DNA of 64,000 bases from an uncultured Phycisphaeraceae bacterium (lineage in GTDB: Bacteria; Planctomycetota; Phycisphaerae; Phycisphaerales; UBA1924): positions 11,546 to 75,545 of the forward strand of contig CAYHQQ010000011.1 in NCBI GenBank assembly GCA_964358855.1, written 5' to 3'. Positions within the stretch are counted from its first letter, which is position 1; every line of letters starts with the position of its first letter. Of this stretch, positions 16,886 through 36,465 are shown one piece after another. Below the pieces are notes generated by a model. The model was not told the DNA's origin, did not search any database, and saw only the letters and a list, made by a program, of their open reading frames with translations. The translations under genes were made by a program, and so were the position numbers.

Positions 16886-16906
16886 GCACGCTCGGAGTCT
16901 CTCTTT

Positions 16907-17995: not shown

Positions 17996-18035
17996 AGTTC
18001 TCGGACAGATCAAAGAGAAGAATTTCTCGTCCACA

Positions 18036-18055: not shown

Positions 18056-18099
18056 CCGGCTATGGTTCTGCCGATCATCGCAATTGGAAGCACCCACCC

Positions 18100-18678
18100 A
18101 TGCCCTGGAAGAAGAACTTCGATGTCGACGTTGCCCGGGACAGGGCCAAGGCCCTGTTCTGGTCCAAGGGGTACGAGGCGACCTCGATGGAGGACCTGCT
18201 GGGCTGCATGGACATCAATCGGGGAAGCTTCTACGCCACGTTTGGCAGCAAGCAGGCGCTGTACCTCGATGTCCTGCAGCGGTATGACCAGCACTACCGC
18301 TGCGGCGTGCTCGACCAACTCAAGGCTGAGTTCACCCCTCGCGAAGCGATTCTGACGCTGTTCGAGGCGGTCCGAAAGGAAGCCGCCGGCGCGAAGGGCA
18401 CGCGGGGGTGTTTTCTCGCCAACGCAACGATGGAGCTCGCCGCCTCTGACAAGTCCGTTGCCAAAATCGTCGGTGTTGCATTCAGCCAGACCGAGGCGTT
18501 CTTCAAAGCCATGATCGAGCATGGCCAGGCCGACGGCACGATCCGCGCCAGCGCAGATCCGGATGTCGTCGCCCGGTCTCTTCTCGGTCTGCTGCTTGGC
18601 ATGCGGGTGTTGGCTCGCGGCGGGTCGCCCGCGCCGGTGCTTGAGTCGATCGTTCAGCAAGTGAAGGAGTTGCTCTAG
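18100..18678 (+). CDS. TetR/AcrR-family transcriptional regulator
   Basis: Trimmed to ATG 18100 (GGAAG upstream). The N-terminal HTH (ARDRAKALFWSKGYEATSMEDLLGCMDINRGSFYATFGSKQALY) is typical TetR_N. Confidence 0.88.
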   Translation: MPWKKNFDVDVARDRAKALFWSKGYEATSMEDLLGCMDINRGSFYATFGSKQALYLDVLQRYDQHYRCGVLDQLKAEFTPREAILTLFEAVRKEAAGAKGTRGCFLANATMELAASDKSVAKIVGVAFSQTEAFFKAMIEHGQADGTIRASADPDVVARSLLGLLLGMRVLARGGSPAPVLESIVQQVKELL

Positions 18679-18718
18679 AAGTCACGCCGCGCGCGTCGCG
18701 GCACAACGTCTGTCCAGA

Positions 18719-18738
18719 TTTGGAACGAGTGTTCCAAA
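18719..18738. promoter_or_regulatory. 20-bp palindrome O2 (TTTGGAACGAGTGTTCCAAA), candidate TetR operator
   Basis: Perfect 8-bp arms TTTGGAAC/GTTCCAAA with a 4-nt centre. Lies 33 nt upstream of the AhpD-like gene ATG (18771), immediately downstream of tetR. Confidence 0.45.
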
Positions 18739-18770
18739 CATTCAATGGTTCGGTTTCCAGGAGTATCGTC

Positions 18771-19370
18771 ATGAAGTCCGCTCTCATCAACGTCCCCGTC
18801 CAGACCGTCGAGTCCGCCCCCGCTGCGTCGCGCGACCTGCTCAAGGCCGCCGGGAGCAAGTTCGGCTTCGTCCCCAACCTGCTGGGCATGTTCGCCAATG
18901 CCCCGGCCCTGCTCGAGGGATACCTCACACTCGCCGGGATCTTTGATAAGACCTCGCTCTCGCCGACGGAGCGTCAGGTGGTCCTGCTCGCCGCCAGCTT
19001 CGAGAACGGCTGTGAATACTGCATGGCGGCACACAGCGCCATCGCGGGCATGCAGAAGGTCGACCAAGGCGTCATCGGCGCCCTGCGGGACGGTAATCCG
19101 ATCAGCGACGCGAAGCTGGAGGCCCTTCGTTCGTTCGCCGCCGAGGCTGTCCGCACCCGCGGCTGGCCGTCGACTGAGGCCGTGGCGCGGTTCACCGGCG
19201 CGGGGTACACCCCGGCCCAGGCGCTCGAGGTCGTCCTTGGCATTGGCGTGAAGACGCTCTCCAACTACGCCAATCACCTCGCGGCGACGCCGCTCGACAG
19301 CGCGTTCGCACCCGTGAAGTGGTCCAAGCCCGGCTGCGGGTGCGGCACCAGCGCCTGCGGCACGCGCTAA
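18771..19370 (+). CDS. carboxymuconolactone decarboxylase / AhpD-like family protein (second paralog)
   Basis: Trimmed to ATG 18771 (AGGAG 7 nt upstream). ASFENGCEYCMAAHS is a CxxC motif of the AhpD/CMD fold. Confidence 0.8.
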   Translation: MKSALINVPVQTVESAPAASRDLLKAAGSKFGFVPNLLGMFANAPALLEGYLTLAGIFDKTSLSPTERQVVLLAASFENGCEYCMAAHSAIAGMQKVDQGVIGALRDGNPISDAKLEALRSFAAEAVRTRGWPSTEAVARFTGAGYTPAQALEVVLGIGVKTLSNYANHLAATPLDSAFAPVKWSKPGCGCGTSACGTR

Positions 19371-19511
19371 CCGGTCCCCCTCGTCCCTCCCTCCTCCTGG
19401 CGGATCGGGTGGCCCGCGCGGGCTCAGGCCATGACGCCTAGCACCCCGCGCGGGCGCCCTTCCGCTCAAGAGGTCCACATCGTCCCATCGCATTCACAAA
19501 GGAGTTCGATC

Positions 19512-19766
19512 ATGCCACTGGTTCAAGTCAAAGGTGTGTCCGGGTATCTGTCCAAGGAACAGAAGGCCGAGTTGATCAAGCGTCTGACGGACGCGGTCCT
19601 TTCGGTCGAGGGCGAGGGCCTCCGCCCCGTCACGTGGGTCATCATCGAGGACGTGCCCGAAGGTCAATGGGGCGTCGGCGGCACGCTCGCCTCCGCCCAG
19701 ATGCTCCGCGAGATGGCCGGCAAGCAGCACTGCGCCACCGGCGCCGCCGCCTGCGCTCGCACCTGA
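19512..19766 (+). CDS. 4-oxalocrotonate tautomerase-family protein
   Basis: Trimmed to ATG 19512 (AAAGGAG upstream). MPLVQVKG...SKEQKAELIKRLTDAV has Pro-1 and the beta-alpha-beta tautomerase pattern. Confidence 0.75.
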   Translation: MPLVQVKGVSGYLSKEQKAELIKRLTDAVLSVEGEGLRPVTWVIIEDVPEGQWGVGGTLASAQMLREMAGKQHCATGAAACART

Positions 19767-20006
19767 GTTGCGCAGCCATCGCTACACGCTCTCGCTCTTC
19801 ACACCTCCACGAGCCGGTTTGGGTCGCCCGCGCGGAAGCAGGAGGTGGTCACTCGCGCCTTGAGGCGTGACAACGTCCACCTTCTCCCAGACAACCCCCC
19901 CCATCCCGCACGGGCGCCCGCCGCTCGTCACGTCCGTGTCCCCGTCTGTTCGCTGTTCGCTGAGTCCGTCCCTGTCCGCAACATGTCCCATTTCAAGGAG
20001 TTTCTC

Positions 20007-21041
<1,035 letters not shown>

Positions 21042-21153
21042 ACAACGCCGGCTTCGGCACATCACACCGCGGACGGCGAAGGCGGTCCGTGGCGATTCGT
21101 CTCAACCGTTTCAGAGTCCGCTGTCTGTGCAGTCACCCCAGTGGAGCGACTCC

Positions 21154-21642
21154 GTGGAAGGCAACGCATACCCCAGCGTTCAACGTGTCCTATTGCCACC
21201 CTTCACCCTCGACACCGCGACTAAAAAGGTGCGTGCCGCCGAAGATGCGTGGAACAGCCGTGATCCCAAGCGTGTATCGCTGGCCTACTCGACCAACAGC
21301 CAGTGGCGCAATCGGGAGCAGGGAATCCGCGGTCGCGAGCAGATCAAAGCCTTTCTGCATCGCAAATGGGCGAGGGAGCTCGACTATCGGCTGATCAAGG
21401 AGCTTTGGGCCTTCTCCGACAACAGGATCGCCGTTCGATTCCAGTACGAGTGGCACGATGACGCGGGACAGTGGTTCCGCAGCTACGGCAATGAGCTCTG
21501 GGAGTTTGATGCGGCCGGGCTCATGCGCCGGCGCGAGGCGAGCATCAATGACGTTTCGATCGAGGAGGCACAACGGCGGTTCCGCTGGGACGCGCCAGGA
21601 CCTCGCCCGGTGGCTCATGGGGGCTTGGAAGAGGTGATGTGA
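21154..21642 (+). CDS. DUF1348-family (SnoaL/NTF2-like) protein
   Basis: [24 protein letters not shown]...WRNREQ...[40 protein letters not shown] matches my memory of DUF1348. There is no in-frame ATG. GTG 21154 (GGAG 7 nt upstream) was chosen; TTG 21193 is an alternative. Confidence 0.7.
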
Positions 21643-21731
21643 AGTCGCCACCTCGGGATCATCGGACGCTACCAGATGACCCATTGTCGTTCAACCCAGC
21701 ACCCGCACGCGGTGCAAAGTACAAAGGAGTT

Positions 21732-22511
21732 ATGCCTGTGGAACAGACGTTCTCGAATCGTTCTCTCTTGGTCGTTGGCGGAACAAGCGGGATCGGTCTC
21801 GCTGTCGCACGAGCCGTTCAAGGCTCGGGCGGCACAGTGACGGTGATCGGTTCCAGACCTGAGAAGGCGGCGCGCGCCGCGGTGGATCTCGGGTCCGGTG
21901 GTCGAGCCCAAACGATAGACGTTGCCGCCGAACAGGGTCTCGCCCAACTGCAGGAACTGATTGCGTCCGAGCCGCACCCGTTCGACCTCTTGGTCAATGC
22001 AGCCGGCATCTTCATTCCCAAGCCGTTCGTCGAGCACACCCCGGAGGACTATGACCGATACGCGGCTTTGACACGCGCACAGTTCTTCGTGACGCAGGCC
22101 ATCGCCCGGCGGCTGATCGCCTTCGGCCGCGGTGGTGCGGTGGTCAATATCGGCTCCATGTGGGCGAGGCAAGCGATCGAAGCCACACCTTCGTCGGCGT
22201 ACTCCGTTGCCAAGGCGGGCCTGCATGCGCTCACCCAGCATGCAGCGATGGAACTGGCCAAGCACCGAATACGCGTGAATGCGGTATCGCCGGCGGTTGT
22301 CGAGACGCCGGTGTACGAGGCATTCATCCCGTCCGATCAGGTTCATGCGGCACTGCAGGGATTCAACTCGTTTCACCCGATCGGTCGGATCGGTACCCCC
22401 CGGGACATCGCCAGCGTGGTCGCATTCCTCCTGTCGGATCAGTCGTCATGGGTCACCGGGGCGATTTGGGACGTTGACGGTGGCGTTATGGCTGGCCGCA
22501 ATGTCATTTAG
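21732..22511 (+). CDS. short-chain dehydrogenase/reductase (SDR)
   Basis: Trimmed to ATG 21732 (AAAGGAG upstream). Cofactor motif [11 protein letters not shown] and active-site motif [11 protein letters not shown]. Confidence 0.88.
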
Positions 22512-22545: not shown

Positions 22546-22579
22546 AGGGAATAGTCCGGCCCGGATAGCCATTCCCTTC
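22546..22579 (+). promoter_or_regulatory. bipartite palindromic motif, copy S2 (AGGGAATAG-N16-ATTCCCTTC)
   Basis: Both 9-mers and the 16-nt spacer length are identical to S1. The spacer carries a TCCGG-c-CCGGA inner palindrome. The motif ends 6 nt before the ATG of the TVP38-DUF547 gene (22586), which has no SD. If it is a promoter, the mRNA would be nearly leaderless. Confidence 0.65.
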
Positions 22580-22585
22580 CGAGCC

Positions 22586-24268
22586 ATGAGCCACTCCGCC
22601 GTCGAAACGCCGCCCGTGAACGCTGATCCCTCGGACTCGCGTGCCCAAGGCACGAACGCTGCGGGCGCGGGTGGCTGGGCACAGAAGGCCGTGCGCCTGC
22701 TCTGCTTTGTCATCATCGCGGCGAGTGCGCTGGTCATCCTGCGTGCCCTGCCGACGGCCCAACTGCTGGACCTAATGCAGAAGAAAGTGGCGACGTTCGG
22801 GCCGTGGGGGCCGGTCGTGTACGGCGTCACGTACTTCGTCGCCGCCGTCCTCTTCGTCCCCGGCTCGGCCCTCACGCTCGCTGCGGGCGCGATCTTCGGG
22901 CTTGCCGGGGGATTCGCCACCGTCTCGGTCTCGTCCACCGCCGCCGCCGGGGCATCGTTCCTCATCGCGCGCTACCTCGCCCGCGACAAGGTGCGCAAGA
23001 TGGCCGAGAGCAACCGCACCTTCGGAGCGATCGACAAGGCCATCGCGCAAGGCGGGTGGAAGATCATCGCGCTCCTGCGGCTCTCGCCCGCCGTGCCCTT
23101 CTCCTTGGGCAACTACCTCTACGGGCTGACGCCGGTGAAGTTCTGGCCGTACCTGCTCGCGTCGTGGGTGGCGATGATGCCCGGTACGTTCCTGTTTGTG
23201 TACCTGGGCTACGTCGGTAAGACAGCCGCAGGTGGTGGCGGCGGCAAGAACCCGTGGCAGTGGGTGCTGCTGGGCGCTGGTCTGCTCGCGACGATCGTGG
23301 TGAGCGTGTACGTGACCCGACTGGCCCGCAAGGCCCTGAAAGAGACGTCTCTGAAAGAGGACAGTGTGAAGCGTGACACGAGCGAGAAGTCCGCACAGGT
23401 CGTCAAGTCCGGTCCCAAGCCCGTGGGCAAGCCGATCGTCGCGGCCGGGGTGCTTGCTGTGCTGGCGGCGTGCGCACAGCTCAACAAGGGGCGCCTCGGC
23501 AGCATGTTCGGTCCGCCCAAGGCGACGCCCCACGAGGCCTACGCGAACGCTCCAGCCGGAGCAACGTTCGATCACTCGGCGTTCGATGCACTCCTGAAGG
23601 CTCATGTGAGCACTGAGGGCGGCTTTGTCGACTACGACGCGCTCAAGAAGGATGCGGACAAGCTCGACGCCTACATCGTCGCGATTGGGAAGGCCGATGT
23701 GGACACGCTCGGTCGCGACGAGCGTCTGGCGTTCCTCATCAACGTCTACAACGCTTTCACGCTCCGGCTGATCCTGGACTATTACCCCGTAGACTCGATC
23801 AAGGACATCCCCTCTGACCAGCGCTGGGACGCAAAGCGGTGGACGATTGCCGGCGGCACCTACAGCCTCAACCAGATCGAGCACGAGCTCATCCGCCCCA
23901 AGTTCGCCGAGCCGCGTGTCCACTTCGCGCTCGTGTGCGCCGCGATCGGGTGCCCGCCCCTCCGCAACGAGGCGTACACGGGGGCACGGCTGGAAGAACA
24001 ACTCGCGGACCAGTCGCGCTACGTGCACTCGCACCCCCGATGGTTCCGGTTGCAAGAGGACCGTGGCGAGGTCGAGCTGACCGCCCTTTACGATTGGTAC
24101 GGCGGCGACTTCACGCAGAAGGCGTCGTCGGTGGTTGCCTTCGCGGCACAGTTTTCGCCTGAACTGGTCCGGCTCATCAACTCGGGCAAGGAGCCCCGCG
24201 TGAAGTTCCTGGACTACAGCTGGAAACTCAACAGCGTTGGGAATCGATCGCTTGCGGGCGACAAGTAG
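22586..24268 (+). CDS. TVP38/TMEM64 (DedA-related) membrane domain fused to a DUF547 domain
   Basis: The N-terminal half (VYGVTYFVAAVLFVPGSALTLAAGAIFG...LLRLSPAVPFSLGNYLYGLT) is TVP38/TMEM64-like. The C-terminal half (NVYNAFTLRLILDYYPVDSIKDI...IEHELIRPKFAEPRVHFALVCAAIGCPPLRNEAY) is DUF547-like. Confidence 0.85.
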   Translation: MSHSAVETPPVNADPSDSRAQGTNAAGAGGWAQKAVRLLCFVIIAASALVILRALPTAQLLDLMQKKVATFGPWGPVVYGVTYFVAAVLFVPGSALTLAAGAIFGLAGGFATVSVSSTAAAGASFLIARYLARDKVRKMAESNRTFGAIDKAIAQGGWKIIALLRLSPAVPFSLGNYLYGLTPVKFWPYLLASWVAMMPGTFLFVYLGYVGKTAAGGGGGKNPWQWVLLGAGLLATIVVSVYVTRLARKALKETSLKEDSVKRDTSEKSAQVVKSGPKPVGKPIVAAGVLAVLAACAQLNKGRLGSMFGPPKATPHEAYANAPAGATFDHSAFDALLKAHVSTEGGFVDYDALKKDADKLDAYIVAIGKADVDTLGRDERLAFLINVYNAFTLRLILDYYPVDSIKDIPSDQRWDAKRWTIAGGTYSLNQIEHELIRPKFAEPRVHFALVCAAIGCPPLRNEAYTGARLEEQLADQSRYVHSHPRWFRLQEDRGEVELTALYDWYGGDFTQKASSVVAFAAQFSPELVRLINSGKEPRVKFLDYSWKLNSVGNRSLAGDK

Positions 24269-24282
24269 GACCAGACCCACAA

Positions 24283-25893
24283 ATGACGACTACTCACAAC
24301 GGGACGATCCACGACGCACTATCGGCACACGCCAAGCGATACAACGGTGACAGCACGATGCAGTCTACATTCGATCCGAGTGTTCTGGCCGATCTCCGGC
24401 CTTTGGACGAACACAACTCACGGCTGCTCGAAGCCGTCCATCCGCCCACCTGGAACAACCCCACGCCCTCAGGCCGCTACAACATGGCGGTGATCGGCGG
24501 CGGCACCGCGGGGCTGGTGACGGCGGCCGGTGCGGCCGGTCTTGGGGCGAAAGTTGCACTCGTTGAGCGGAGGTTTCTGGGGGGCGACTGCCTCAACTTC
24601 GGTTGCGTGCCGAGCAAAGCACTGATCCGCTCGGCACGGTCGGTGGGCGACCTCGTTGAAGCGCACCATTATGGGGTCAGGGCGGGATCGGGCTTCGGTG
24701 TCGATTTCCCGGCGGTGATGGAGCGCATGCGCCGGCTGCGTGCGGAGATAGCACCGCACGACTCCGCCGAGCGGTTCCGTTCGCTCGGGATCGACGTCTT
24801 CATCGGTGACGCCAAGTTCACCGGTTCGGACACCATCGAGGTAGGCGGGCAGACACTGCGTTTCGCCCGAGCGTGCATCGCGACCGGAGCTCGTCCCGCC
24901 ACCCCTGCCATCCCCGGGTTGGCAGAGGCCGGGTTCCTGAACAACGAGAACGTCTTCACACTCACCGAGCTGCCGCCTCGGCTGGCCGTGCTCGGCTCAG
25001 GCCCGATCGGCTGCGAGCTCGCTCAGTGCTTCGCACGCTTCGGATCCACAGTGACCGTCATCGAACAGGCTGGCCAAGTGCTGCCGCGTGAAGACCGCGA
25101 TGCCGCCGAGTTCGTGATCAAGGCGATGGGTCGCGACAATGTGATCTTCAGGCTGAACGCCAGTGTGGAACGGGTCGAACAATCTGCCTCGGGCAAGACG
25201 CTGGTGCTCAAGACCGCTGGGGGCGAGGAACGGTTAGAGGTTGACGAGATCCTGGTGGGTATCGGGCGAGCGCCGAACGTGGAGGGCATGGGGCTGGAAG
25301 CGGCGGGCGTGAAGTTCGACGCACGCAAAGGAGTCGAAGTCACGGATGGACTGCGGACCACCAACCCGCGGATTTATGCGGCGGGCGATGTGTGCAGCAG
25401 GTACAAGTTCACGCACGCCGCGGATGCGATGGCCCGGATCGTGATTCAGAACGCGCTCTTCTTCGGGCGCTCCAAGGCGAGCCGACTGGTCATGCCGTGG
25501 TGCACGTTCACGGACCCAGAGATCGCGCACGTTGGCATGTACGAGAAGGACGCCCAGGAGCAAGGCATCGAGACCGACACCATCGCGGTAGAACTCGGCA
25601 AGGTCGATCGGGCCATTCTCGACGGCGAAGATGGCTTGCTGAAGGTTCTCCTACGCAAAGGCTCAGACGAGATTCTCGGCGCAACCCTCGTGTCCAGGCA
25701 CGCGGGCGAGACGATTTCGGAACTCACCACCGCGATCACCCACGGCGTCGGTCTGCGCAAACTCGCGAGTGTCATCCATCCGTACCCGACACAGGCGGAG
25801 GTCATCAAGCGGGCGGCGGACGCTTACAACCGCACCCGCTTGACGCCCGGTGTCAAGAAACTCTTCGAGCGTGTTCTGGCGTGGAGGCGATGA
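24283..25893 (+). CDS. FAD-dependent pyridine nucleotide-disulfide oxidoreductase (class I; the 'mercuric reductase-like' group without metal-binding extensions)
   Basis: GGGTAGLVTAAGAAGLGAKVALVE...GGDCLNFGCVPSKALI shows the dinucleotide fold and the CxxxxC redox centre. No HMA domain and no C-terminal Cys pair. The start is uncertain (ATG 24283 has no clear SD). Confidence 0.85.
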   Translation: MTTTHNGTIHDALSAHAKRYNGDSTMQSTFDPSVLADLRPLDEHNSRLLEAVHPPTWNNPTPSGRYNMAVIGGGTAGLVTAAGAAGLGAKVALVERRFLGGDCLNFGCVPSKALIRSARSVGDLVEAHHYGVRAGSGFGVDFPAVMERMRRLRAEIAPHDSAERFRSLGIDVFIGDAKFTGSDTIEVGGQTLRFARACIATGARPATPAIPGLAEAGFLNNENVFTLTELPPRLAVLGSGPIGCELAQCFARFGSTVTVIEQAGQVLPREDRDAAEFVIKAMGRDNVIFRLNASVERVEQSASGKTLVLKTAGGEERLEVDEILVGIGRAPNVEGMGLEAAGVKFDARKGVEVTDGLRTTNPRIYAAGDVCSRYKFTHAADAMARIVIQNALFFGRSKASRLVMPWCTFTDPEIAHVGMYEKDAQEQGIETDTIAVELGKVDRAILDGEDGLLKVLLRKGSDEILGATLVSRHAGETISELTTAITHGVGLRKLASVIHPYPTQAEVIKRAADAYNRTRLTPGVKKLFERVLAWRR

Positions 25894-27353
25894 CCGAACG
25901 AGCACTTCAATCACTGCATGACCGTCCTCGCGCAGCGCCGCCCCACAGCGGCTGGCCAGTGGCCTATTGGATTGCCGGTGGCTCGTTCGTGGCGTACGCG
26001 GCCCTCCTCAGTGGCCTCTCCCGAATGCTGGCGTCGGATGGGATCGGGCGGCAGCATGCCCTTGTGTGGCTCGCAGGTGGTGGCGTAGTCGCCGGCTCTC
26101 TTTACCTCTTCGGCCTATATCGTGCACAACGCCGAGGCGTTCAGATTGCGCCAGTCTGGATCGCGGTCGTGGCCGTCCTGGCACGGCTCATCGTCTCGCT
26201 GTCCCCGCCAATGCTTGAATCCGATTATCAGCGGTACCTCTGGGATGGCGCGGTCGCTGCGAACGGTATCAATCCCTACCGATATCCCCCTAGCGACATC
26301 ATCGCGGGTACGGCCCGTGGGCAGGGCGCTGATCGTCTATCTGATCTGGCTCATCGTGCCGGTCCCGTGCTCACGAGCATCAACCATCCGACGCTCACGA
26401 CCATCTACCCGCCAGTCGCTCAGGCCAGCTTCGTGGTCGCCTATGCGATCGCTCCATTCGGCCCCAATGGCCTCCGAATTGTTTTCTGCCTGGCCGACGC
26501 AGTGACGGTGCTGCTCCTTGCCAGATTGCTCAGGGCTCTCGGCCTTCCTGCTGTCAAGATTGCCTGGTTCGCCTGGAATCCACTCCTCCTCCGAGAGGTG
26601 TATTCGTCCCTTCACATGGACATTCTCCTGCTGCCGCTAGTCGTGGCGGCTCTGCTGGCAGCAGTCCGCTCCCGAAGCGGATTAGTCGCGGCGTGCCTTG
26701 TTGTCGCATCAGCGGTGAAGGTCTGGCCCATCGTTCTTGCACCGCTCGTTCTGCGGCCCCTGTTTGGCCAGTGGCGTCGAATGGCGGCGGTGGTTGGTGC
26801 GTGCGGTCTGCTGGGGGCTGTCCTCTGGCTCCCCGTGGTGCTCGCCCCGCACGGCGAGAACAGCGGCTTCTTGGCCTACGGGCGCGCATGGCAGAACAAT
26901 GATGGATTCTTCCGGGCCGGCATCTGGATGACCGAGCGGGTATTGAATCTGGCTCACATCGAGCCTTGGCACTCCCACACGATCATGCGACTGCTGACCG
27001 CGGGGTTGGTCGCAGGGATCGTCCTCTGGCAATCGCGAACGCTGGCAAGTGATGGCACGAGCCTGGTACGCCGGTGCGTCTTCATCGTCGGCGGGATCTT
27101 TCTCCTGAGTCCGACTCAGTTCCCGTGGTACTGGCTCTGGTGTCTTCCGTTCCTCACGCTCCGTCCCAGCCTTCCCTTGCTTGTCTACACCGCGCTGCTG
27201 CCCATCTACTACGTTCAGGACCAGCTTGTGTACCCGCTCGGCCACTGGCTCCAGCACGCTCCTGTGTGGATTCTCCTGCTACTGGCGGGAGGACGAACAG
27301 CGCTGGGGCATCGCACCAGGCTATTTGATGAACGGGAGGTCCGTGTTGCGTAA
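25890..27353 (+). CDS. polytopic GT-C-type membrane glycosyltransferase-like protein (DUF2029 / GT87 / PIG-M-like)
   Basis: ATG 25890 overlaps the reductase stop as ATGA. Roughly 10 or more hydrophobic helices. The loop motif ESDYQRYLWDGAVAANGINPYRY...TTIYPPVAQ resembles the first extracytoplasmic loop of DUF2029/PIG-M-type mannosyltransferases. Family assignment is by eye only. Confidence 0.7.
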   Translation: MTERALQSLHDRPRAAPPHSGWPVAYWIAGGSFVAYAALLSGLSRMLASDGIGRQHALVWLAGGGVVAGSLYLFGLYRAQRRGVQIAPVWIAVVAVLARLIVSLSPPMLESDYQRYLWDGAVAANGINPYRYPPSDIIAGTARGQGADRLSDLAHRAGPVLTSINHPTLTTIYPPVAQASFVVAYAIAPFGPNGLRIVFCLADAVTVLLLARLLRALGLPAVKIAWFAWNPLLLREVYSSLHMDILLLPLVVAALLAAVRSRSGLVAACLVVASAVKVWPIVLAPLVLRPLFGQWRRMAAVVGACGLLGAVLWLPVVLAPHGENSGFLAYGRAWQNNDGFFRAGIWMTERVLNLAHIEPWHSHTIMRLLTAGLVAGIVLWQSRTLASDGTSLVRRCVFIVGGIFLLSPTQFPWYWLWCLPFLTLRPSLPLLVYTALLPIYYVQDQLVYPLGHWLQHAPVWILLLLAGGRTALGHRTRLFDEREVRVA

Positions 27354-29499
27354 CGGCTCCGTGATTGCCGTGGTGATCCCTGCGTTGAACGAGGAGGCCG
27401 CGCTCCCCGGCGTCATTGCACGCATCCCCGAATGGGTTGACCGAATTGTCGTCGTCGATAACGGCTCAACAGACCGGACGGCTGCCGTCGCTCGTGCCGC
27501 GGGCGCCGTGGTGGTCTCGGAACCCACACGCGGCTACGGCCGCGCGTGCCAGGCGGGCATCATCGCGGCCGAGACGGACCCTCAACTGTCGCCGGAACTG
27601 CTGGTATTCCTTGACGCCGACGGCAGCGACTTCCCCGAGCAGATGGAGCGAGTAGTTGATCCGATCATCGGGGGCTGCGCCGACATGGTCATCGGATCCC
27701 GGACACGCGGGGTGCTTAACGCGGGGGCGATGACCGCGCCGCAGCGATTCGGCAATCTAATCGCTCCCGCTCTAATCCGGTGTCTGTGGGGAGAGCGGTA
27801 CACTGACCTCGGCCCGTTCCGCGCGATCCGTGTGTCGGCCCTGCGTTCCCTTCGCATGGACGACAACACCTACGGCTGGACCGTGCAGATGCAGATCCGG
27901 GCCGCCCGGGTTGGCTTGCGAACGCTTGAGGTGCCTGTCGACTACGGCTGTCGCCGAGGCGGCGAGTCCAAAATCTCGGGCACGATTCGCGGCGTTGTAA
28001 AGGCAGGCACAAAGATCCTCGCGTGCGTCGGCCAGGAGTACTTCTGGCCGAAGAAGCTCACCAGCGGCGCACGAGAGGCGCTCGGTGTGTTCGCTAAGTA
28101 CCCCGAGCCCGGAAGAGCCAAGACTCGGCTCATTCCCGCGTTGGGAGCGGCGGGCGCTGCGGGTCTGCACGACAGCATGGTCCGTCACACCCTGGCCCGC
28201 GTGAGCGAGTTGCTCAGCCAGCGCGAAGTGGAGTCCCGCGTCTATTCGGCTGGAACCGACCCCGACACCTTCGCACACCACTTCAAGACCCAGGTTCCGT
28301 GCGTGGCGCAGAGTTCCGGCGACCTCGGGCAGCGGATGCTCGCGGCGTTCCGGCACATGCTGCGGGAAGCGACCGCTGCTGTCATCATCGGGACCGACTG
28401 CCCTGACATCTCACCGGGCCTCCTCGGTATGGCGTTCGAGGCGCTGCGATCCTCGGATGTGGTCCTCGGCCCGGCCAGCGACGGCGGATACTACCTCATT
28501 GGTCTGAGGCGCCCCGTCCCGGCACTCTTCGAGAACATGGAGTGGAGCACTGCGACGGTGCTGGCCAAGACGCTTGAACTGGCGTCGTCGCTCGGGCTCT
28601 CGGTCCGGCTCCTGCCCACGCTCAACGACATCGATGAACCACCCGACCTGCCGGTGTGGGATCGTGTCCGTGCCACGTTTGCACCGACCGGTGAGATGCC
28701 ATCACTCTCGGTCATCATTCCCACCCTCAATGAGCAGGGTCGAATCGGCAACCTCGTTGACACGGTTCGCCATCCCGGCGTTGAGGTCATTGTCGCCGAC
28801 GGCGGGAGCGACGACAACACACGCAGCGTCGCGGCTGCACACGGCGCTCGCGTGATCATCGCTTCCCGCGGGCGAGGCCCCCAACTCAACGCCGGCGCTG
28901 CGCTCGCGAGAGGGCAGAACCTGCTGTTCCTGCACGCAGACACCACACTCCCCGAGAACTTCGGTGACATCGTGCGGCGGACGCTCAGCGACTCGTCCGT
29001 GGCGGTCGGGGCCTTCCGCTTCAAACTCGATCGTGCGGGCGTTCTCCTGCGCGTCGTTGAAATCGCCGTGCAGGTCCGCTGCGGCGTCTTCAAGACACCC
29101 TACGGCGATCAGGCGTTGTTCATGAGGCGCGATGTGTTCACACGGCTCATGGGGTTCGCGGCAATCCCGCTGATGGAAGACCTCGACCTCGTCCGCCGTG
29201 CCCGGATGACAGGCCGCGTCACGGTGGTGGACGCACCGGCCATCACCTCCGCCAGGCGATGGGAAGTCGTCGGCGTAATGCGTATGACCGCCATCAACCA
29301 GGCGTGCGTCATCGGTTTTTCGATGGGAATGTCGCCGCAGAGGCTGGCCACGTGGCGAAACCGCCTGTCTGGGAAGAAGCCCGTGCGGGCGAGCGTCCCA
29401 ATTCCGTGCGCCGGTCAGATCGTGCCCGAAGGTTCCTTGGCTCCAAACGCTGCCCGAGCCATCTGCATGGCTTCTTCGGACTTGGACGTAAGGAAGTAG
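27328..29499 (+). CDS. three-domain fusion: GT2 (DPM1-like) + DUF2064/TIGR04282-like + GT2 (TIGR04283-like), 723 aa
   Basis: ATG 27328 is in-frame and overlaps the upstream gene by 26 nt. Domain 1 (about 27328-28070): VIAVVIPALNEEAALPGVI...VVVDNGSTDRT...FLDADGSD. Domain 2 (about 28075-28690): LGVFAKYPEPGRAKTRL...IGTDCPD...DGGYYLIGL. Domain 3 (about 28700-29370): SVIIPTLNEQ...VADGGSDDNT...FLHADT...YGDQALF...RRW. Confidence 0.85.
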   Translation: MNGRSVLRNGSVIAVVIPALNEEAALPGVIARIPEWVDRIVVVDNGSTDRTAAVARAAGAVVVSEPTRGYGRACQAGIIAAETDPQLSPELLVFLDADGSDFPEQMERVVDPIIGGCADMVIGSRTRGVLNAGAMTAPQRFGNLIAPALIRCLWGERYTDLGPFRAIRVSALRSLRMDDNTYGWTVQMQIRAARVGLRTLEVPVDYGCRRGGESKISGTIRGVVKAGTKILACVGQEYFWPKKLTSGAREALGVFAKYPEPGRAKTRLIPALGAAGAAGLHDSMVRHTLARVSELLSQREVESRVYSAGTDPDTFAHHFKTQVPCVAQSSGDLGQRMLAAFRHMLREATAAVIIGTDCPDISPGLLGMAFEALRSSDVVLGPASDGGYYLIGLRRPVPALFENMEWSTATVLAKTLELASSLGLSVRLLPTLNDIDEPPDLPVWDRVRATFAPTGEMPSLSVIIPTLNEQGRIGNLVDTVRHPGVEVIVADGGSDDNTRSVAAAHGARVIIASRGRGPQLNAGAALARGQNLLFLHADTTLPENFGDIVRRTLSDSSVAVGAFRFKLDRAGVLLRVVEIAVQVRCGVFKTPYGDQALFMRRDVFTRLMGFAAIPLMEDLDLVRRARMTGRVTVVDAPAITSARRWEVVGVMRMTAINQACVIGFSMGMSPQRLATWRNRLSGKKPVRASVPIPCAGQIVPEGSLAPNAARAICMASSDLDVRK

Positions 29500-30364: not shown

Positions 30365-30970
30365 TCAATCTCTTGAATCCGCGGCCTGGGCTTCTGGTCG
30401 AGGTTCGATGATGCCAGCGCGTCCGAGTTGCGGGGCCAAGGTCGCGTCGTTTCGAAGAAACCGTGCGGCCTGACTCCTGGCGCGATGGAGCCTGCTCATC
30501 ACCGTGCCGATTGGAACGGCCAAGGCCTCGGCGATCTCACGGTACTTGAGACCCTCGACGCCCCAGAACCACAACACTTCCCTCAACTCGACGCTCATCG
30601 AATCCATCGCCTCCTGCATCCGCGTTCCGGCCAAAGCAAGGTCAATCTCTCCGGCCTCAGCCGCGCTCACCGTTTCTGAGGACTCCCCGGTGTCCCTTGC
30701 CTGATCAGTTACCCGCCTGAGCGCCCGGTTTCCCGCCTGCTCGTGCTCAAGCCGTCCATAAAAACTTGTTCTCGCAATCGTCATCAGCCACGCCCGCATT
30801 CCAGCACCCCGACTCGTGAATCCAGCGATCGACTCGGGACGAAACGCCCGCGCATAGACATCCTGAACGAGTTCCTCCGCAGCGTCCGGGTCCTTTGTGA
30901 GGAAGCGGGAAAAGCGGTAAACCGCGTCAAGCTCAGCTATCGCCAGCTTCTCAAACTCGTCTCGCTGCAT
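30365..30970 (-). CDS. ECF-type RNA polymerase sigma-70 factor
   Basis: Region 2 (AELDAVYRFSRFLTKDPDAAEELVQDVYARAF...MRAWLMTIARTSFY) and region 4 (VLWFWGVEGLKYREIAEALAVPIGTVMSRLHRARSQ). Confidence 0.9.
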   Translation of the reverse strand: MQRDEFEKLAIAELDAVYRFSRFLTKDPDAAEELVQDVYARAFRPESIAGFTSRGAGMRAWLMTIARTSFYGRLEHEQAGNRALRRVTDQARDTGESSETVSAAEAGEIDLALAGTRMQEAMDSMSVELREVLWFWGVEGLKYREIAEALAVPIGTVMSRLHRARSQAARFLRNDATLAPQLGRAGIIEPRPEAQAADSRD

Positions 30971-30981
30971 GAGTTGTCCAG

Positions 30982-31015
30982 AGAGGTAATGGCCACGGTG
31001 ATCAGCCTATTCCCC
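30982..31015 (-). promoter_or_regulatory. bipartite motif, copy S4 (GGGGAATAG-N16-ATTACCTCT), candidate autoregulated ECF promoter
   Basis: On the minus strand it reads GGAAT-N18-ATT, ending about 12 nt before the sigma ATG (30970). 14/18 match to S1/S2 with an identical spacer length. Confidence 0.45.
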
Positions 31016-32605: not shown

Positions 32606-34561
32606 CTAGGCGGCGTTCGCGCGTGGCCATTTGGGCGTGGAGTCGGTGAGTGTCCGCTCGTTCTCCTTGAGCAAGGCTTGAACGGCAACCGCGTCGACAG
32701 GGCGTGACATGTAGTAACCCTGTCCGCTGCTGCATCCCAGGGCTTGCAACTGGGCGAGTTGCTCGATGGTCTCGATTCCTTCGGCGATCACCTTGACCCT
32801 TCGGTTGCTCGCCATGGTCTGAATCGCGTTCACGATATTGGCGACCCGCCCATCGAGGCCCATGCCCGACACGAACGAACGATCGATCTTGACGGCGTCG
32901 ATGGGAAGCGTGTGGAACGAACTCAAGGAGGAGTAGCCCGTGCCAAAGTCGTCCAGGTGGAGCCCGACCCCCATCTCTCGGATCGAGGCCAGCTGCTTGC
33001 ACACGGCCTCGATATTGTCGATGAAGGCACTCTCGGTGATCTCGATATTGAGGCACTCGCCCGGCAGGCCGGTGTCCCTGATGATCCTAGCGATCGCGTC
33101 GGCCAACCCCGCGACGGCGAGTTGCTTGGTGGACACGTTGACGCTGACGCAGAGGCTCTTGTGTGCCGGGAAGCGTTCGTGCCAGATTCTCAGCTGCTGG
33201 CAGCTTTCCCGCATCACCCACAGGCCCAGCTCGTGGATGACACCTGTTTCCTCGGCGACGGGGATGAACAGGGCCGGGCCAAGGGTTCCCAGCTCGGGAT
33301 GGTCCCAGCGCACCAGCGCCTCGACGCTCTCGATGAGCCCGGATTCCAATGACACGATGGGCTGGTACAGCACACGCAATTGAGAGAGCGAGATCGCACT
33401 CTTGAGGTCGTTGCTCAGCCTGCGCTCCGACAGCACCTTCTGACGGATTGTCTCGTCGTACTCGCACACCTGCCCCTTGCCCGTCTCCTTGGCCTGGTAC
33501 AGGGCCGCGTCGGCGTCGCGAAGCAGGTCATCGGGGACGAGATGCTCGGGGCATCCCAGGACGAAGCCGATACTGACGTTGACAGCGACCTGGTGGCCCG
33601 CCATGACGGTTGGTTGGGCGATTGTCCTCTGGAGGCGCTGGGCGATGACGCGCACCTCGTCCGCGGAGTTCACGTCGTCGAGCAGCAGTACAAACTCGTC
33701 TCCCCCCAGCCGGGCGGGGATGTCTCCGCCCACGCGCATGGCGGAATCGAGGGACCTCAGGCTGCCCTCAAGCCGCTTGCCGACCTCGACCAGCAGGTAG
33801 TCACCCATCGCGTGCCCCAGCGTGTCGTTGATCGACTTGAAGTTGTCCAGGTCGAGAAAGAGCACGGCGTACTTGAAGGCGGCGTCGCGCTTGGACCGCT
33901 CGATGCAACGCTCGATCCTCTCGTTGATGAGCAACCGGTTGGGCAGCGAGGTCAGCGAGTCGTACTTGAGTTGCCCTTCAACGGTCCTTCTGGCCTCGAC
34001 TTCCAGCTGCAAGCGAGCGTGGGAGAGCTCAAGGGCTTGCCGGGCGGCAACGGCGTTGGTCTCGGCGAGTCGCTTTTGCGACAGCGAGTTGGCAAGCTGC
34101 CAGACCTCGGCGGCGTCAAACGGCTTGCGAAGGAGCAGGAGACGGTGCGTCTGGCCCAGTCGTTGCGCGATGTCGTCCCACGGATGGTCCGAGTATGCCG
34201 TGCAGATCACGACATCGAGGTTCGGATCGGCCTTCCACAGTTGTTCCACGGTTTGGGTGCCATCCCAGCCCGGCGGCATGCGCATGTCGACGAACGCCAT
34301 GGAGTACGGTCGGCCCTCCGCCAGAGCTTTGTTCAGGAGCGAGACACCCTCGCGCCCCTGAGAGGCGGCGTCCACCTCGAACGTTGCTGTGGGCGTTGTC
34401 GCGGGCGTTTGGGGCGTCTTCCCGAACAGCGCGGCGTCCATCGCGTCCAAGGCGTCGCTTCCACCCGCGGCACGGCACAGGATCGTGCGATAGGCCTTCT
34501 GGATGGATTGCTCGTCATCGATCACCAGAATCCTGCTGGATGTTGGGGCGTTGGCTTTCAT
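32606..34561 (-). CDS. response regulator with GGDEF and EAL domains (REC-GGDEF-EAL)
   Basis: ATG 34561 overlaps the kinase stop as ATGA. REC domain (RILVIDDEQS...AFVDMRMPPGWDG), RLGGDEFVLLL (GGDEF) and VEALVRWDHPELG (EAL). The 190-aa ORF-track N-extension is Arg-rich and was rejected. Confidence 0.9.
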   Translation of the reverse strand: MKANAPTSSRILVIDDEQSIQKAYRTILCRAAGGSDALDAMDAALFGKTPQTPATTPTATFEVDAASQGREGVSLLNKALAEGRPYSMAFVDMRMPPGWDGTQTVEQLWKADPNLDVVICTAYSDHPWDDIAQRLGQTHRLLLLRKPFDAAEVWQLANSLSQKRLAETNAVAARQALELSHARLQLEVEARRTVEGQLKYDSLTSLPNRLLINERIERCIERSKRDAAFKYAVLFLDLDNFKSINDTLGHAMGDYLLVEVGKRLEGSLRSLDSAMRVGGDIPARLGGDEFVLLLDDVNSADEVRVIAQRLQRTIAQPTVMAGHQVAVNVSIGFVLGCPEHLVPDDLLRDADAALYQAKETGKGQVCEYDETIRQKVLSERRLSNDLKSAISLSQLRVLYQPIVSLESGLIESVEALVRWDHPELGTLGPALFIPVAEETGVIHELGLWVMRESCQQLRIWHERFPAHKSLCVSVNVSTKQLAVAGLADAIARIIRDTGLPGECLNIEITESAFIDNIEAVCKQLASIREMGVGLHLDDFGTGYSSLSSFHTLPIDAVKIDRSFVSGMGLDGRVANIVNAIQTMASNRRVKVIAEGIETIEQLAQLQALGCSSGQGYYMSRPVDAVAVQALLKENERTLTDSTPKWPRANAA

Positions 34562-36465
34562 GCGGCGACACTCTCCTGGGCGACACGGCTGGGAAGGTCC
34601 AGGCGGAAAGCGGCTCCGGTGCTCCCGCTCGGCTCCATCATGGCGAGCGTCCCGTTCATCTCGCGAACAGCCAACCAGCTGAAGTGCAGGCCGATGCCAT
34701 GCCCATCGGGCTTGGTGGTGAATCCCTTGCTGAAGAGCCTGTCCCTGTACTGAGGACTGACGCCAGGACCGTTGTCGCTGATCTCCACGAAGGCGGTTCC
34801 AAGTGCGCCGCGTCCACCTCGGATCGTGATGAGCGGCCCAGGAGTCTTCGCCCCGACCAGCGCTTCCTTGGCGTTGGAGATCAGGTTGACGAGCACCTGC
34901 GACAACTTCGAGCGGTCGCAACTGACGAGCACAGACGACTCCACTTCCACCGCAAGGCCGACGCCGTGCCTTTGCAACGACGCGGTGATGACATGGAGCG
35001 CCTTGGTGATGACATCGCCGAGGTTGGCGTGCTCGACGAAGTTGGACGAGGACGCGATGCCCTGGTGAGAAGCCACGATGTCCTTCACGTGCTGCAGGCC
35101 CTCGCGCAGACCCGCAAGGTCCTGCTGACAATCCGCGAGTTCGAGATTGAGATGGCTCGCGAGCTGCGCGAGGTAGGCGGGAATCTGCTGTCCCGGACGC
35201 CCGTTCTCGAAGAACCCGGGCAGATCGGTCTGGTGCTCGGAAAGCAGGTCGGACACCTTCGAGAGACGGGGAGCTGCGGAGCCGGCGAGCTTGCTCGTGA
35301 GTGTGTCCGCCAGAACATTCACGTTCGTCATTGCATTGCCGACGTTGTGGAGCACGCCGGCGGCGACCTCCGCCATGCCGGCTTGTCGCGAGAGGGAGAC
35401 CGAGTTGGCACGGCCCTCCTCCAACTGTGAGAGCATCCCGTCAAACGCCCGCGCAAGGGTGCCCAGTTCATCCCCGCGCTTGAGGTCGACGCGACCCTCC
35501 AGCCGCCCGCTCTTGCCGATATGGGTCGCGTGCTTCGTGAGGGTGCCGAGCGGCTCGAGTACCAACCATCGCATGGCGTAGAGCAGAACACCAAGCGTGA
35601 GCAATCCGGCGGACAGGAGGGACACCGTGGCCATGTGCAGAGCACCGTTGCCCCGCGATGTGATCTGTCGCTTTCCATCGGTCTTGATGAGCATGACGGG
35701 TGAGTCGTCGACCGCCCGCATGACACCGCGAACCGCCAGGCGCTGGGCGTCAATAATTTCCTCCACGGGAGAGTCGCTCTCAATCGCCGCCGCCATGCCG
35801 GCTCGGTCCGCCTGGGTCACGCTCTCGCTGGAGACATCCCAGGTGTCGAACTGCACGCCTGTCTGTGCCCGGAGTGACTCGACCACCTCCGCGGTGATGA
35901 GGCGGCCGAAGATGAGCACACCCCCAAGTGGTCCTTCGTTGTTGCTCTTGAGGATCGGGCGAGCGGCGAGGATCATGAGGCCCAGTTCCGTTCGGGCGAT
36001 ACCCGAGACGCTGCTTTCCTTGGTGCCGGTGACGGCCATGAGTGGGTGCCCAGCGGGCAGACGCTCCTTGGGCATGAAGGCGAGCACGGCCGGCTCGCCC
36101 GTGGGCAACGATGCCAGGTGACTCCAGTACACCGTGCCGTCGGGCTTGCAGAAGTACACGAGATCGATCTTCTGATCCGTGTACCATTCAACGTTCTCGA
36201 GATTCTCGCTGACAAAGCTCGGGTTGGTGTTCTGCACGAACGTGTACGCGTGGTCCCAGGAGGACCAGTCAAAGCACGCCAGCGACAGCGCTTCCCGCTC
36301 CCGAACAATCGCGTTGCGGCAGCGTTCCCAGTCCTTCACCGCGTCATCATGCTCGAGCGCACGAAAGCTGGGCGCGATCGCGAAGCGTTGGATCGCGTAG
36401 TTGACCACAACAGAGACCGTGAGAATCGTGGCGAGCAGCAGGGTGAGTTTGAGCCTGAGTTGCAT
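34558..36465 (-). CDS. sensor histidine kinase with CHASE4-like periplasmic domain and HAMP
   Basis: N-terminal TM, then a DWSSWDHAYTFV-type CHASE4-like region, a second TM, HAMP, H-box GVLHNVGNAM, and an ATPase domain (ISDNGPGV, GHGIGL). Confidence 0.88.
   Translation of the reverse strand: MQLRLKLTLLLATILTVSVVVNYAIQRFAIAPSFRALEHDDAVKDWERCRNAIVREREALSLACFDWSSWDHAYTFVQNTNPSFVSENLENVEWYTDQKIDLVYFCKPDGTVYWSHLASLPTGEPAVLAFMPKERLPAGHPLMAVTGTKESSVSGIARTELGLMILAARPILKSNNEGPLGGVLIFGRLITAEVVESLRAQTGVQFDTWDVSSESVTQADRAGMAAAIESDSPVEEIIDAQRLAVRGVMRAVDDSPVMLIKTDGKRQITSRGNGALHMATVSLLSAGLLTLGVLLYAMRWLVLEPLGTLTKHATHIGKSGRLEGRVDLKRGDELGTLARAFDGMLSQLEEGRANSVSLSRQAGMAEVAAGVLHNVGNAMTNVNVLADTLTSKLAGSAAPRLSKVSDLLSEHQTDLPGFFENGRPGQQIPAYLAQLASHLNLELADCQQDLAGLREGLQHVKDIVASHQGIASSSNFVEHANLGDVITKALHVITASLQRHGVGLAVEVESSVLVSCDRSKLSQVLVNLISNAKEALVGAKTPGPLITIRGGRGALGTAFVEISDNGPGVSPQYRDRLFSKGFTTKPDGHGIGLHFSWLAVREMNGTLAMMEPSGSTGAAFRLDLPSRVAQESVAA

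Follow-up and report, generated by a model that had tools for sequence, protein, structure and literature searches.

Organization of the sigma factor locus

The 64,000-nucleotide stretch of DNA analysed here, from an uncultured Phycisphaeraceae bacterium (GenBank assembly GCA_964358855.1, contig CAYHQQ010000011.1, positions 11,546 to 75,545), carries a group of arsenosugar genes next to a gene pair for a sigma factor of the extracytoplasmic function (ECF) type and a predicted membrane anti-sigma factor. We refer to the whole stretch as the window and use its own numbering throughout. A preliminary description of the window had noted a two-box motif, termed S4, immediately upstream of the sigma factor gene, and had proposed that this motif and its relatives are promoters of an ECF regulon that includes the arsenic locus. 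We assign a probability of roughly 78% to the reading, based on comparative sequence analysis, that S4 serves as autoregulatory promoter for a planctomycetal, SigH-like ECF sigma factor with a local arsenosugar and thiol-redox regulon. The features on which this reading centers are the following.

30982 to 31015, minus strand: S4, predicted autoregulatory ECF promoter of the sigma factor gene
31014 to 31007 and 30990 to 30988, minus strand: the predicted −35 box (GGGAATAG) and −10 triplet (ATT) of S4
30365 to 30970, minus strand: ECF sigma factor, SigH-like, 201 amino acids
29415 to 30368, minus strand: predicted membrane anti-sigma factor, in which a single transmembrane helix connects an N-terminal anti-sigma domain to about 180 amino acids forming an outer domain
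22586 to 29499, plus strand: arsenosugar-associated operon (DUF547+VTT, FAD-dependent disulfide oxidoreductase, GT87, GT2-TIGR04282-TIGR04283)

The motif is present as had been described, reading GGGGAATAG-gctgatcaccgtggcc-ATTACCTCT on the minus strand from 31015 to 30982 with an N16 spacer, and it is indeed identical at 14 of 18 positions to S2, a site preceding the arsenosugar-associated operon that also has a 16-nt spacer. Eleven nucleotides separate the end of S4 from the ATG of the sigma factor gene at 30970. ECF sigma factor genes are usually autoregulated, and here the gene is preceded by a predicted group-specific promoter and followed by an anti-sigma open reading frame that abuts or overlaps its stop codon. 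S4 is very probably the sigma factor gene's own promoter. When the −10 element is aligned with the numbering established for Mycobacterium tuberculosis SigH (G-11 T-10 T-9; PMC6411747), transcription would begin at G 30979 and leave a 9-nt leader, GGACAACUC. The predicted start is a G in the window and in relatives L001 to L004 and L006, and in most of these it begins a conserved GGACAA.

Two SigH proteins whose consensus was defined by experiment provide a reference for this layout, which in published form is GGAAT-N18-19-GTT or GGAATA-N17-GTT (PMC10012870, PMC6411747). In Corynebacterium glutamicum the consensus is "-35 gGGAAta and -10 t/cGTTgaa", and GGAATA-N17-GTT is found for trxB1 and mshC (PMC10012870). 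In M. tuberculosis the elements are a −35 GGAAYA and a −10 G-11T-10T-9 at a rigid spacing, and any change of G-11 abolishes activity (PMC6411747). The preliminary description had written all copies of the motif as GGAAT-N18-ATT and had considered this a generic ECF layout. The layout does fit the SigH-type consensus, but the usual −10 triplet in the family is GTT, and ATT is better regarded as a tolerated variant.

Conservation upstream of sigma factor orthologs

A scan of GTDB genomes yielded seven loci (L001 to L007) encoding sigma factors with 58-76% identity to that of the window, in Planctomycetota assemblies labelled Isosphaeraceae or Phycisphaerae. Two further orthologs (L097, assembly GCA_050486265.1, and L101) were reached through homologs of the anti-sigma factor, so that nine orthologs were inspected in all, with about 20 kb examined per relative. 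The same two-box layout precedes all nine genes at 14-20 nt from the start codon, while the flanks and the spacer diverge. Eight of the nine conform to GGGAATAG-N16-RTT, one of them (L007) with the variant −35 box GGGAATAA, and the ninth, L101, has GGAAATAG. In L001 to L007, the −35 box is followed by 14 variable bases and then by C-Y-G-T-T-C/T (CCATTC in L006), and the site ends 14-18 nt before the start. The corresponding promoters read CGGAATAG-N14-CCATTGCC in L097 and GGAAATAG-N14-CTGTTTAG in L101. GTT is the usual −10 triplet among the orthologs; the unusual variant CCATTGCC (ATTGCC) of L097 is common to its sigma factor and DUF547 promoters.

A clearly different promoter consensus for this sigma factor group, which had been named as grounds for abandoning the proposal, is not what phylogenetic footprinting gave: the consensus agrees with the layout of S4, and the promoters of the orthologs match that of SigH. 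Both the orthologs and the published SigH/SigR consensus therefore support the interpretation of S4 as an ECF promoter. No match to a sigma-70-type promoter was found before the sigma factor gene between 30900 and 31300.

Related sites in the window

It is extremely unlikely that S4 is a chance match and that the sigma factor gene relies on some unrelated promoter. The −10 region of S4 (ATTACC) is the weakest among the main sites, and a crude model in the preliminary description had allowed for about 0.5 such matches per window. However, this estimate falls well short of the signal, as GGAAT-N18-ATT is seen seven times where 0.65 occurrences are expected. Moreover, GGAAT-Nx-RTTC has nine matches at x=18 but only 0-3 at each other x from 12 to 25, and GGGAATA occurs four times in 128 kb (both strands), namely in S1 on both strands, in S2 and in S4. 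The presence of the layout before all sigma factor orthologs and the absence of a sigma-70-type promoter from the 300-nt upstream region likewise speak against coincidence.

The same is true of a weight matrix covering 8 + 8 positions that was built exclusively from six foreign sigma factor promoters. At a score of at least 16, this matrix finds nine hits in the window, compared with 0.17 expected, and all are intergenic, in promoter positions and located between 7 and 31 kb. In 60 simulated windows (first-order Markov) the top score was 17.7, and S4, at 19.8 on the minus strand, exceeds every one of them. The other predicted promoters in the window are listed below with their scores.

14304 to 14337, both strands: S1, a perfect palindrome GAAGGGAATAGG-N6-CCTATTCCCTTC between the divergent S-methyl-5'-thioadenosine (MTA)-phosphorylase-like gene and arsM; score 25.5 on both strands
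22547 to 22580, plus strand: S2, same promoter class, nearly palindromic, before the DUF547/VTT operon, with ATT at 22571 to 22573 and a predicted +1 at 22582 (4-nt leader); score 23.8 (plus) and 20.4 (minus)
10265 to 10298, both strands: weaker palindrome TGGAATAC-N14-CCATTCCC between the DUF3179-redoxin gene (minus) and DUF2934, unknown and CMD (AhpD-like) genes (plus)
10147 to 10180, minus strand: directional GTT-type site CGGAATAA-N14-CTGTTCCC before the DUF3179 + AhpC/TSA redoxin gene; score 21.3
7171 to 7204, minus strand: directional GTT-type site CGGAATAG-N14-CTGTTCCC before the thioredoxin-like gene; score 22.5, and 19.1 for its reverse reading (plus)

Two properties of these sites go beyond the preliminary description. 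First, the sites S1, S2 and 10265 match on both strands and hence constitute inverted repeats, with the general sequence GGGAATAG-N14-CYATTCCC. Only one base separates the −10 box (CTRTTCCC) from the reverse complement of the −35 box, since GGGAATAG gives CTATTCCC where the −10 box is CTGTTCCC, and consequently an A at −11 makes the two strands identical. The arms of S1 extend perfectly over 12 nt in the window, and the starts predicted from its sequence, 14339 (plus) and 14298 (minus), would be 41 bp apart. Second, when either G or A is allowed in the −10 triplet, the two GTT-type sites that end at 10180 and 7204 appear on the minus strand, and these are not palindromic.

Two other candidates were set aside. 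A site at 35179 (plus) with a score of 14.9, which is under the null maximum, falls within a histidine kinase gene and was treated as a chance match. A structured RNA was also considered, but the only Rfam match in the window is a tRNA, and the arms would lie upstream of the predicted start. In addition, the arms are invariant in sequence and so provide no covariation, which argues against an RNA hairpin.

Conservation at predicted target genes

The genes that follow these sites, in addition to the operon at 22586 to 29499, are given here.

14420 to 17995, plus strand: arsM-like methyltransferase, PHO4-family transporter and radical-SAM ArsS
13249 to 14199, minus strand: MTA-phosphorylase-like gene (Pfam PNP_UDP_1), served by the minus orientation of S1
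8111 to 10081, minus strand: DUF3179 + AhpC/TSA redoxin gene
6581 to 7135, minus strand: thioredoxin-like gene

A metagenome scan with ArsM provided 80 loci for comparison. In 9 of the 10 loci whose ArsM is at least 75% identical (L018 to L026), GGGAATAG-N14-CTATTCCC, perfect or one base short, lies between the divergent PNP/MTAP-like and ArsM genes, and the spacers of these palindromes are mutually unrelated. L017 carries a related site 11 nt upstream of arsM. Of the approximately 70 loci from other lineages with ArsM identity of 65% or less, none has a site upstream of arsM with a score of 15 or more. In the window and its relatives, the MTA-phosphorylase-like gene starts 106-107 nt from the minus-strand ATT.

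Sites of the S2 type recur 10-12 nt before the DUF547 ATG in four relatives. The copy in L023 (contig JAESFG010000119.1) is nearly palindromic, as in the window, and that of L022 is palindromic and is shared with a divergent gene for an ECF sigma factor paralog (40% identical). The remaining two are not palindromes, with L097 carrying CGGAATAC-N14-CCATTGCC and L101 the GTT-type GGGAATAC-N14-CCGTTCTC. Between ArsS and DUF547 in L022 (13615-15461) there is also an FMN-reductase-like gene, and the sigma paralog in this interval has no obvious anti-sigma gene beside it.

The motif is likewise conserved at genes related to thiol redox chemistry. The L023 equivalent of the 10265 site, at position 607, scores 23.8, and the motif also precedes the gene for a DUF255 / DsbD_N thioredoxin-domain protein in L018, L023 and L025. 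The promoter of the thioredoxin-like gene has GTT in L018 and ATT in L019 and L020, indicating that G and A are interchangeable at this position in the clade. The proposal of an ECF regulon that takes in the arsenic locus is supported at the level of sequence by the conserved arsM and DUF547 sites and by the linkage to the sigma factor described below, and its predicted membership widens to thiol-redox genes. Several transcripts of the predicted regulon would have leaders 2-9 nt long that lack a clear Shine-Dalgarno sequence, with 4 nt for DUF547 (22582-22588), 9 nt for the sigma factor (30971-30979) and about 2 nt for the DUF255 protein in relatives (L018 5170-5215), which suggests near-leaderless translation in these planctomycetes.

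Orientation provides a further constraint on what these sites might be. Thirteen distinct non-palindromic sites from five gene families were collected, belonging to the sigma factor (L001/4, L002, L003, L005, L007 and L101), the thioredoxin-like protein (window and L018), DUF3179 (window), DUF255 (L018, L023 and L025) and DUF547 (L101). The asymmetry always consists of GTT in the gene-proximal box, and the distal box is never GGAAC.

These data bear on the possibility that the sites are operators recognized by some dimeric regulator of transcription, such as the TetR-family protein encoded at 17962 to 18678, and that their resemblance to ECF promoters is coincidental. Such a protein would bind GGGAATAG-N14-CTATTCCC with half-site centers 22 bp apart. 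The match of S1, S2 and the 10265 site on both strands, the perfect 12-nt arms of S1, the conservation in relatives of arms flanking a variable spacer, and the near palindromy of S2 without a divergent gene are all features that an operator might have, and occupancy beside start codons could block initiation. Nevertheless, we consider this explanation very unlikely. Only the window and L023 possess the TetR gene, whereas the motif persists without it in L018 to L022, L024 to L026, L097 and L101. Palindromy is dispensable at the DUF547 sites of L097 and L101, and the asymmetry has the same direction relative to the gene in 13 of 13 non-palindromic sites. In both boxes and in spacing, the sites coincide with the consensus known for the nearest characterized relatives of the sigma factor, and symmetry of an operator would account neither for the constant distance from the start codon nor for the G conserved at the predicted +1.

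An intermediate possibility is that the sites are ECF promoters whose palindromic versions are additionally bound by a symmetric regulator that gates them. The palindromy of S2 is kept in the window and in L023 even though no divergent gene is present, and the symmetry of S1 in the window reaches 12 nt, past the 8-nt boxes. However, no conserved candidate regulator travels with the motif across loci, relatives do not retain symmetry past 8-9 nt, and two-way use at divergent gene pairs already covers most of the palindromes. We therefore regard dual control as unlikely, although it is less easily dismissed than an operator-only explanation.

The sigma factor and its linkage to arsenosugar genes

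The protein encoded at 30365 to 30970 contains Pfam domains Sigma70_r2 (residues 13-75) and Sigma70_r4_2 (118-166) with no region 3, which is the layout of ECF (group 4) sigma factors, and it scores 60.7 with TIGR02937 (sigma70-ECF; cutoff 42.9). The best match in the PDB is M. tuberculosis SigH (5zx2_F, E 2.3e-21), with which it shares the −35 recognition helix, PIGTVMSRLHR, residue for residue. The thresholds of the SigH/SigR family are missed, with 92.6 bits against 251.55 for TIGR02947 (SigH_actino) and 110.7 against 248 for PRK12533.

The adjacency of the sigma/anti-sigma pair to the arsenosugar operon, which had been pointed out for the window, holds in eight relatives as well (L001 to L004, L007, L024, L097 and L101). 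In the linked loci the pair is convergent to the GT2/TIGR04282/3 gene, at anti-sigma identities as low as 47%. No arsenosugar genes were present within the sequence fetched for L005 and L006, which have closer sigma orthologs, or near the remote anti-sigma homologs of L098 to L100 (27-30% identity), and no motif was seen in L098 or L099. Because arsenosugar genes are missing near L098 to L100, the linkage seems to be restricted to the closer clade. In L100 (anti-sigma identity 27%, 6.9-Mb genome), TGGAATA-N18-TATTCCA occurs before the sigma factor gene at about 9250-9356; it has the same half-sites with two extra spacer bases, and may be a chance occurrence or a spacing variant of the motif.

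It could be argued that the promoters do form a class but have an ECF paralog encoded elsewhere in the genome as their main reader, with the adjacent sigma factor gene being one more target. The paralog of L022, which is divergent from DUF547 and shares its palindromic site, shows how this might arise, and overlapping specificity has been documented for SigH and SigE (PMC10012870). The window, however, holds no other ECF sigma factor gene, the motif precedes every ortholog of this sigma factor, and it is this sigma/anti-sigma pair and no other that stays with the arsenosugar operon, at anti-sigma identities as low as 47%. In addition, the −35 helix equals that of SigH, a reader of GGAAYA, and autoregulation is typical of ECF sigma factors. 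On balance, another paralog as the main reader is improbable, and the adjacent sigma factor is the better candidate.

The predicted membrane anti-sigma factor

The product of the downstream gene appears to be an anti-sigma factor. Its matches to sequence models are weak (RsrA TIGR03988, 23.3 against 62.5; NF052375, 33.3 against 100). The N-terminal part comprises four predicted helices (residues 22-90), with a pLDDT (predicted local distance difference test) of about 90 over residues 21-60, and the gene adjoins that of an ECF sigma factor. The motif of zinc-binding anti-sigma (ZAS) proteins, HxxxCxxC, is absent, and the position reads H-IAA-H-PE-D (H-x3-H-x2-D). In an alignment of 36 homologs, every N-terminal domain is free of cysteine. 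The protein without these cysteines is therefore not a zinc/redox switch of the RsrA/RshA type. The family is small, with 72 homologs, and the few that carry a source name are labelled Phycisphaerae or Phycisphaerales.

As the preliminary description had proposed, translation and an AlphaFold model agree on an extracytoplasmic domain: one transmembrane helix at about residues 112-138 is followed by approximately 180 residues. This outer domain is modelled with a pLDDT of about 90. In the alignment of homologs its C215 is invariant (GAGPCAVPGRG), and H163 and C166 are nearly so (QHxECExH). Pfam gives no significant match to the outer domain, apart from a faint one to DUF3379 below threshold (E 0.008, 15.9 bits). 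In Foldseek searches of the PDB the only recurring matches are to RseB (E 0.03-0.4; probability 0.75-0.98 for most chains and 0.41 for one), and this resemblance is weak, with a template-modelling (TM) score of about 0.2 and nothing below E 0.02. The outer domain with its conserved histidine and cysteine residues is likely a sensor, and it may be hypothesized that the Cys/His cluster responds to thiol-reactive compounds or metalloids.

The anti-sigma gene overlaps the last arsenosugar gene (27181 to 29499) convergently, as had been noted, and the overlap is 85 nt (29415-29499). This tail-to-tail arrangement recurs in relatives whose anti-sigma identity is as low as 47% (L097, 10876-10960; L101, 10858-10942; and 79 nt by tblastn in L001). 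With the sigma operon and a predicted target operon transcribed toward each other, mutual interference could occur.

Other genes of the locus

The assignments of the arsenosugar genes vary in firmness. ArsS passes its model (TIGR04167, 407.5 against a cutoff of 300), as does the 772-aa fusion protein for both of its parts (TIGR04282, 206.2 against 134; TIGR04283, 272.9 against 182). The ArsM-like protein is under all curated thresholds (NF038099, 118 against 400; best model NF040538, 301.7 against 500), and the product of 13249 to 14199 scores 254 bits with the NCBIfam MTAP model, whose cutoff is 274.85. ArsS forms 5'-deoxy-5'-dimethylarsinoyladenosine by adenosylation of dimethylarsenite (PMC13598754). 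An MTAP-like enzyme might phosphorolyze this arsenical nucleoside and so supply arsenoribose-1-phosphate to the glycosyltransferases, in which case co-expression of ArsS and the MTA-phosphorylase-like gene would make biochemical sense. A scan of the genes from 6.5 to 36 kb of the window showed no ArsR.

Several further observations concern the surroundings of these genes. The longest open reading frames for GT87 (25392-27353) and DUF1348 (20923-21642) extend about 500 and 120 nt, respectively, into the genes before them, but their Pfam domains begin at residues 338 and 92, and the true starts are thus probably further downstream. A block of TetR, CMD, tautomerase, alpha/beta hydrolase, DUF1348 and SDR genes (17962-22511) has a counterpart in L023 (13561-18099) with 80-97% protein identity. 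Within it, TetR, CMD2, tautomerase and hydrolase are 90-97% identical, compared with about 81% for the flanking ArsM, ArsS and DUF547. The other relatives lack the block, and in them DUF547 comes right after ArsS or is separated from it by different genes. By these comparisons the block resembles an insert that was recently gained or exchanged within the arsenosugar locus.

At the left end of the window, a 1685-aa open reading frame (974-6031, plus strand) has a strong coding signature (GC3 0.89) and no Pfam match at E ≤0.01. The tRNA gene mentioned above (6229-6302, plus strand) is encoded on the strand opposite to that of the thioredoxin-like gene, just past the 3' end of the latter. On the other side, past two unknown genes that are divergent from the sigma factor gene, 32606-36465 (minus strand) encodes a GGDEF + EAL response regulator and a CHASE4-HAMP histidine kinase, and this module forms a separate signalling unit with no ECF-type site above background.

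Discussion

Sequence comparison shows that the motif is conserved, rigidly spaced, oriented toward genes and linked to them, and from this we infer transcription from the sites, reading by the adjacent sigma factor, two-way firing of the palindromes and the nature of the signal. The arrangement can be accommodated by the following mechanism. Region 4 of the sigma factor would read the −35 box and region 2 the −10 element C-Y-R-T-T-C-C, 14 bp further on (equivalent to GGAAT-N18-RTT), and the first transcribed base would be some 11 nt downstream of the R of RTT, producing the very short leaders predicted for the sigma factor and DUF547 genes. The same holoenzyme would act at five or more additional promoters within 24 kb, namely those of arsM-PHO4-arsS, the MTA-phosphorylase-like gene, the DUF547-oxidoreductase-glycosyltransferase operon, the thioredoxin-like gene and the DUF3179-peroxiredoxin gene. 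The adjacent sigma factor would thereby switch on arsenosugar synthesis and thiol-redox enzymes together. Where an A occupies −11, the site would become a 30-bp palindrome on which RNA polymerase could be seated in either orientation, creating a two-way promoter between divergent genes. Such use fits S1, which always lies between divergent genes, and the L022 site between the sigma paralog and DUF547. The co-transcribed membrane anti-sigma factor would restrain the sigma factor, with its outer domain of about 180 residues and the His/Cys residues therein acting as the sensor.

A more specific version of this mechanism has a SigH-like sigma/anti-sigma pair peculiar to Planctomycetota act as an envelope sensor of arsenite or other thiol-reactive stress, through the cluster QHxECExH ... 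GAGPCAVPG of an outer domain not described before, and drive organoarsenic (arsenosugar or arsenolipid) and thiol-redox genes through two-way, perfectly palindromic 30-bp ECF promoters and near-leaderless mRNAs. We offer this version tentatively, and consider it doubtful as a whole.

Several points weigh against the autoregulatory SigH-like reading of S4 and its regulon. The sigma factor is under the cutoff of every NCBIfam equivalog model, and for this reason it should not be filed as SigH even though it appears SigH-like in its working. Its specificity loop is two residues shorter than that of SigH, with T76/N77 replaced by A/G, and the way in which SigH reads the −10 element is thus not simply transferable. 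The four main sites of the window have an A at −11, a position where M. tuberculosis SigH loses activity upon any change of G (PMC6411747); the altered loop may account for the acceptance of A. No gene is found on the other side of the nearly palindromic S2 in the window or L023, which the idea of a two-way promoter leaves unexplained. The 10265 site scores 15.5 (plus) and 12.8 (minus), both under the null maximum. The predicted 4-9-nt leaders have no clear ribosome-binding site, and all start sites are themselves predictions from sequence. Finally, the evidence for a regulon comes from the window and from the roughly 20-kb stretches inspected in relatives.

The known systems nearest to this one are the ECF12 pairs of thiol-oxidative stress, SigH/RshA (Mycobacterium and Corynebacterium) and SigR/RsrA (Streptomyces). 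As in the window, these are two-domain ECF sigma factors with the same −35 helix and GGAAT-N18-GTT promoters, a promoter of their own class directly precedes the sigma factor gene, the anti-sigma gene is co-transcribed, and genes of the thioredoxin and disulfide reductase types are among the targets, which here are predicted. The GGAAT-N18-GTT promoter that characterizes ECF12 is found at the orthologs (GGGAATAG-N16-GTT), while the window carries ATT; the soluble ZAS anti-sigma factor of ECF12 is lacking, as a transmembrane helix is present. The differences are therefore a membrane-spanning anti-sigma factor with H-x3-H-x2-D in place of HxxxCxxC, acceptance of A at −11, a −10 box extended to TTCC, an altered −10 specificity loop, arsenosugar genes among the predicted targets, and a host in the phylum Planctomycetota. 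Escherichia coli sigmaE / RseA / RseB also has a membrane anti-sigma factor, which binds sigma through a cytoplasmic domain and has a sensory part on the outside. The fold match to RseB is weak. Its promoter consensus and regulon differ from those predicted here, and the regulated proteolysis of that system has no evidence in the present case.

Symmetric promoters are known for sigma-70, to which RNA polymerase binds in two mutually exclusive orientations to give divergent transcription (Warman et al. 2021, as summarized in PMC10268837 and PMC12825309). There, it is the −10 hexamer that contains the symmetry, and 18 bp separate the two starts. In contrast, the palindromes in the window arise because the −35 box of one strand complements the −10 box of the other, they would be used by an ECF sigma factor, and their predicted starts are 41 bp apart. 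A literature search found no paper on this palindromic promoter geometry. The ars operons governed by ArsR/SmtB proteins share with the present locus the transcriptional control of genes that act on arsenic. There, a metalloid-binding repressor occupies an operator and the targets are efflux or reduction genes, whereas here the predicted control is positive, by an alternative sigma factor, and the targets are biosynthetic (ArsM, ArsS and glycosyltransferases). A full-text literature search found no paper that links arsenosugar genes with a sigma factor, and the main text of the ECF reclassification paper makes no mention of arsenic, palindromic or bidirectional features.

The mechanism itself, an autoregulated ECF sigma/anti-sigma pair with its regulon, is an ordinary one. 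What is new relative to the literature searched is the coupling of such a pair to arsenosugar genes across a planctomycete clade, the membrane anti-sigma factor with an uncharacterized Cys/His outer domain, and the palindromic geometry. The palindromic promoter, if it works as predicted, would be a compact two-way ECF promoter that could find use in synthetic biology. The promoter motif is portable, and the regulon can be computed in any genome that carries it.

Little has apparently been published on the regulation of the ArsM/ArsS pathway and its associated glycosyltransferases outside cyanobacteria, or on why the compounds are made. The sigma/anti-sigma pair would offer a genetic switch for activating the pathway and learning what it makes, and the outer domain is a candidate sensor for arsenite and thiol oxidants. 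Because the arsenosugar genes share a predicted regulon with thioredoxin-like, peroxiredoxin-like and disulfide reductase genes, our findings suggest that the arsenosugar pathway is part of a thiol-stress response. The occurrence of one promoter type before the sigma factor gene and before the nearby arsenosugar and thiol-redox genes points to a previously undescribed stress switch for organoarsenic synthesis in planctomycete bacteria.

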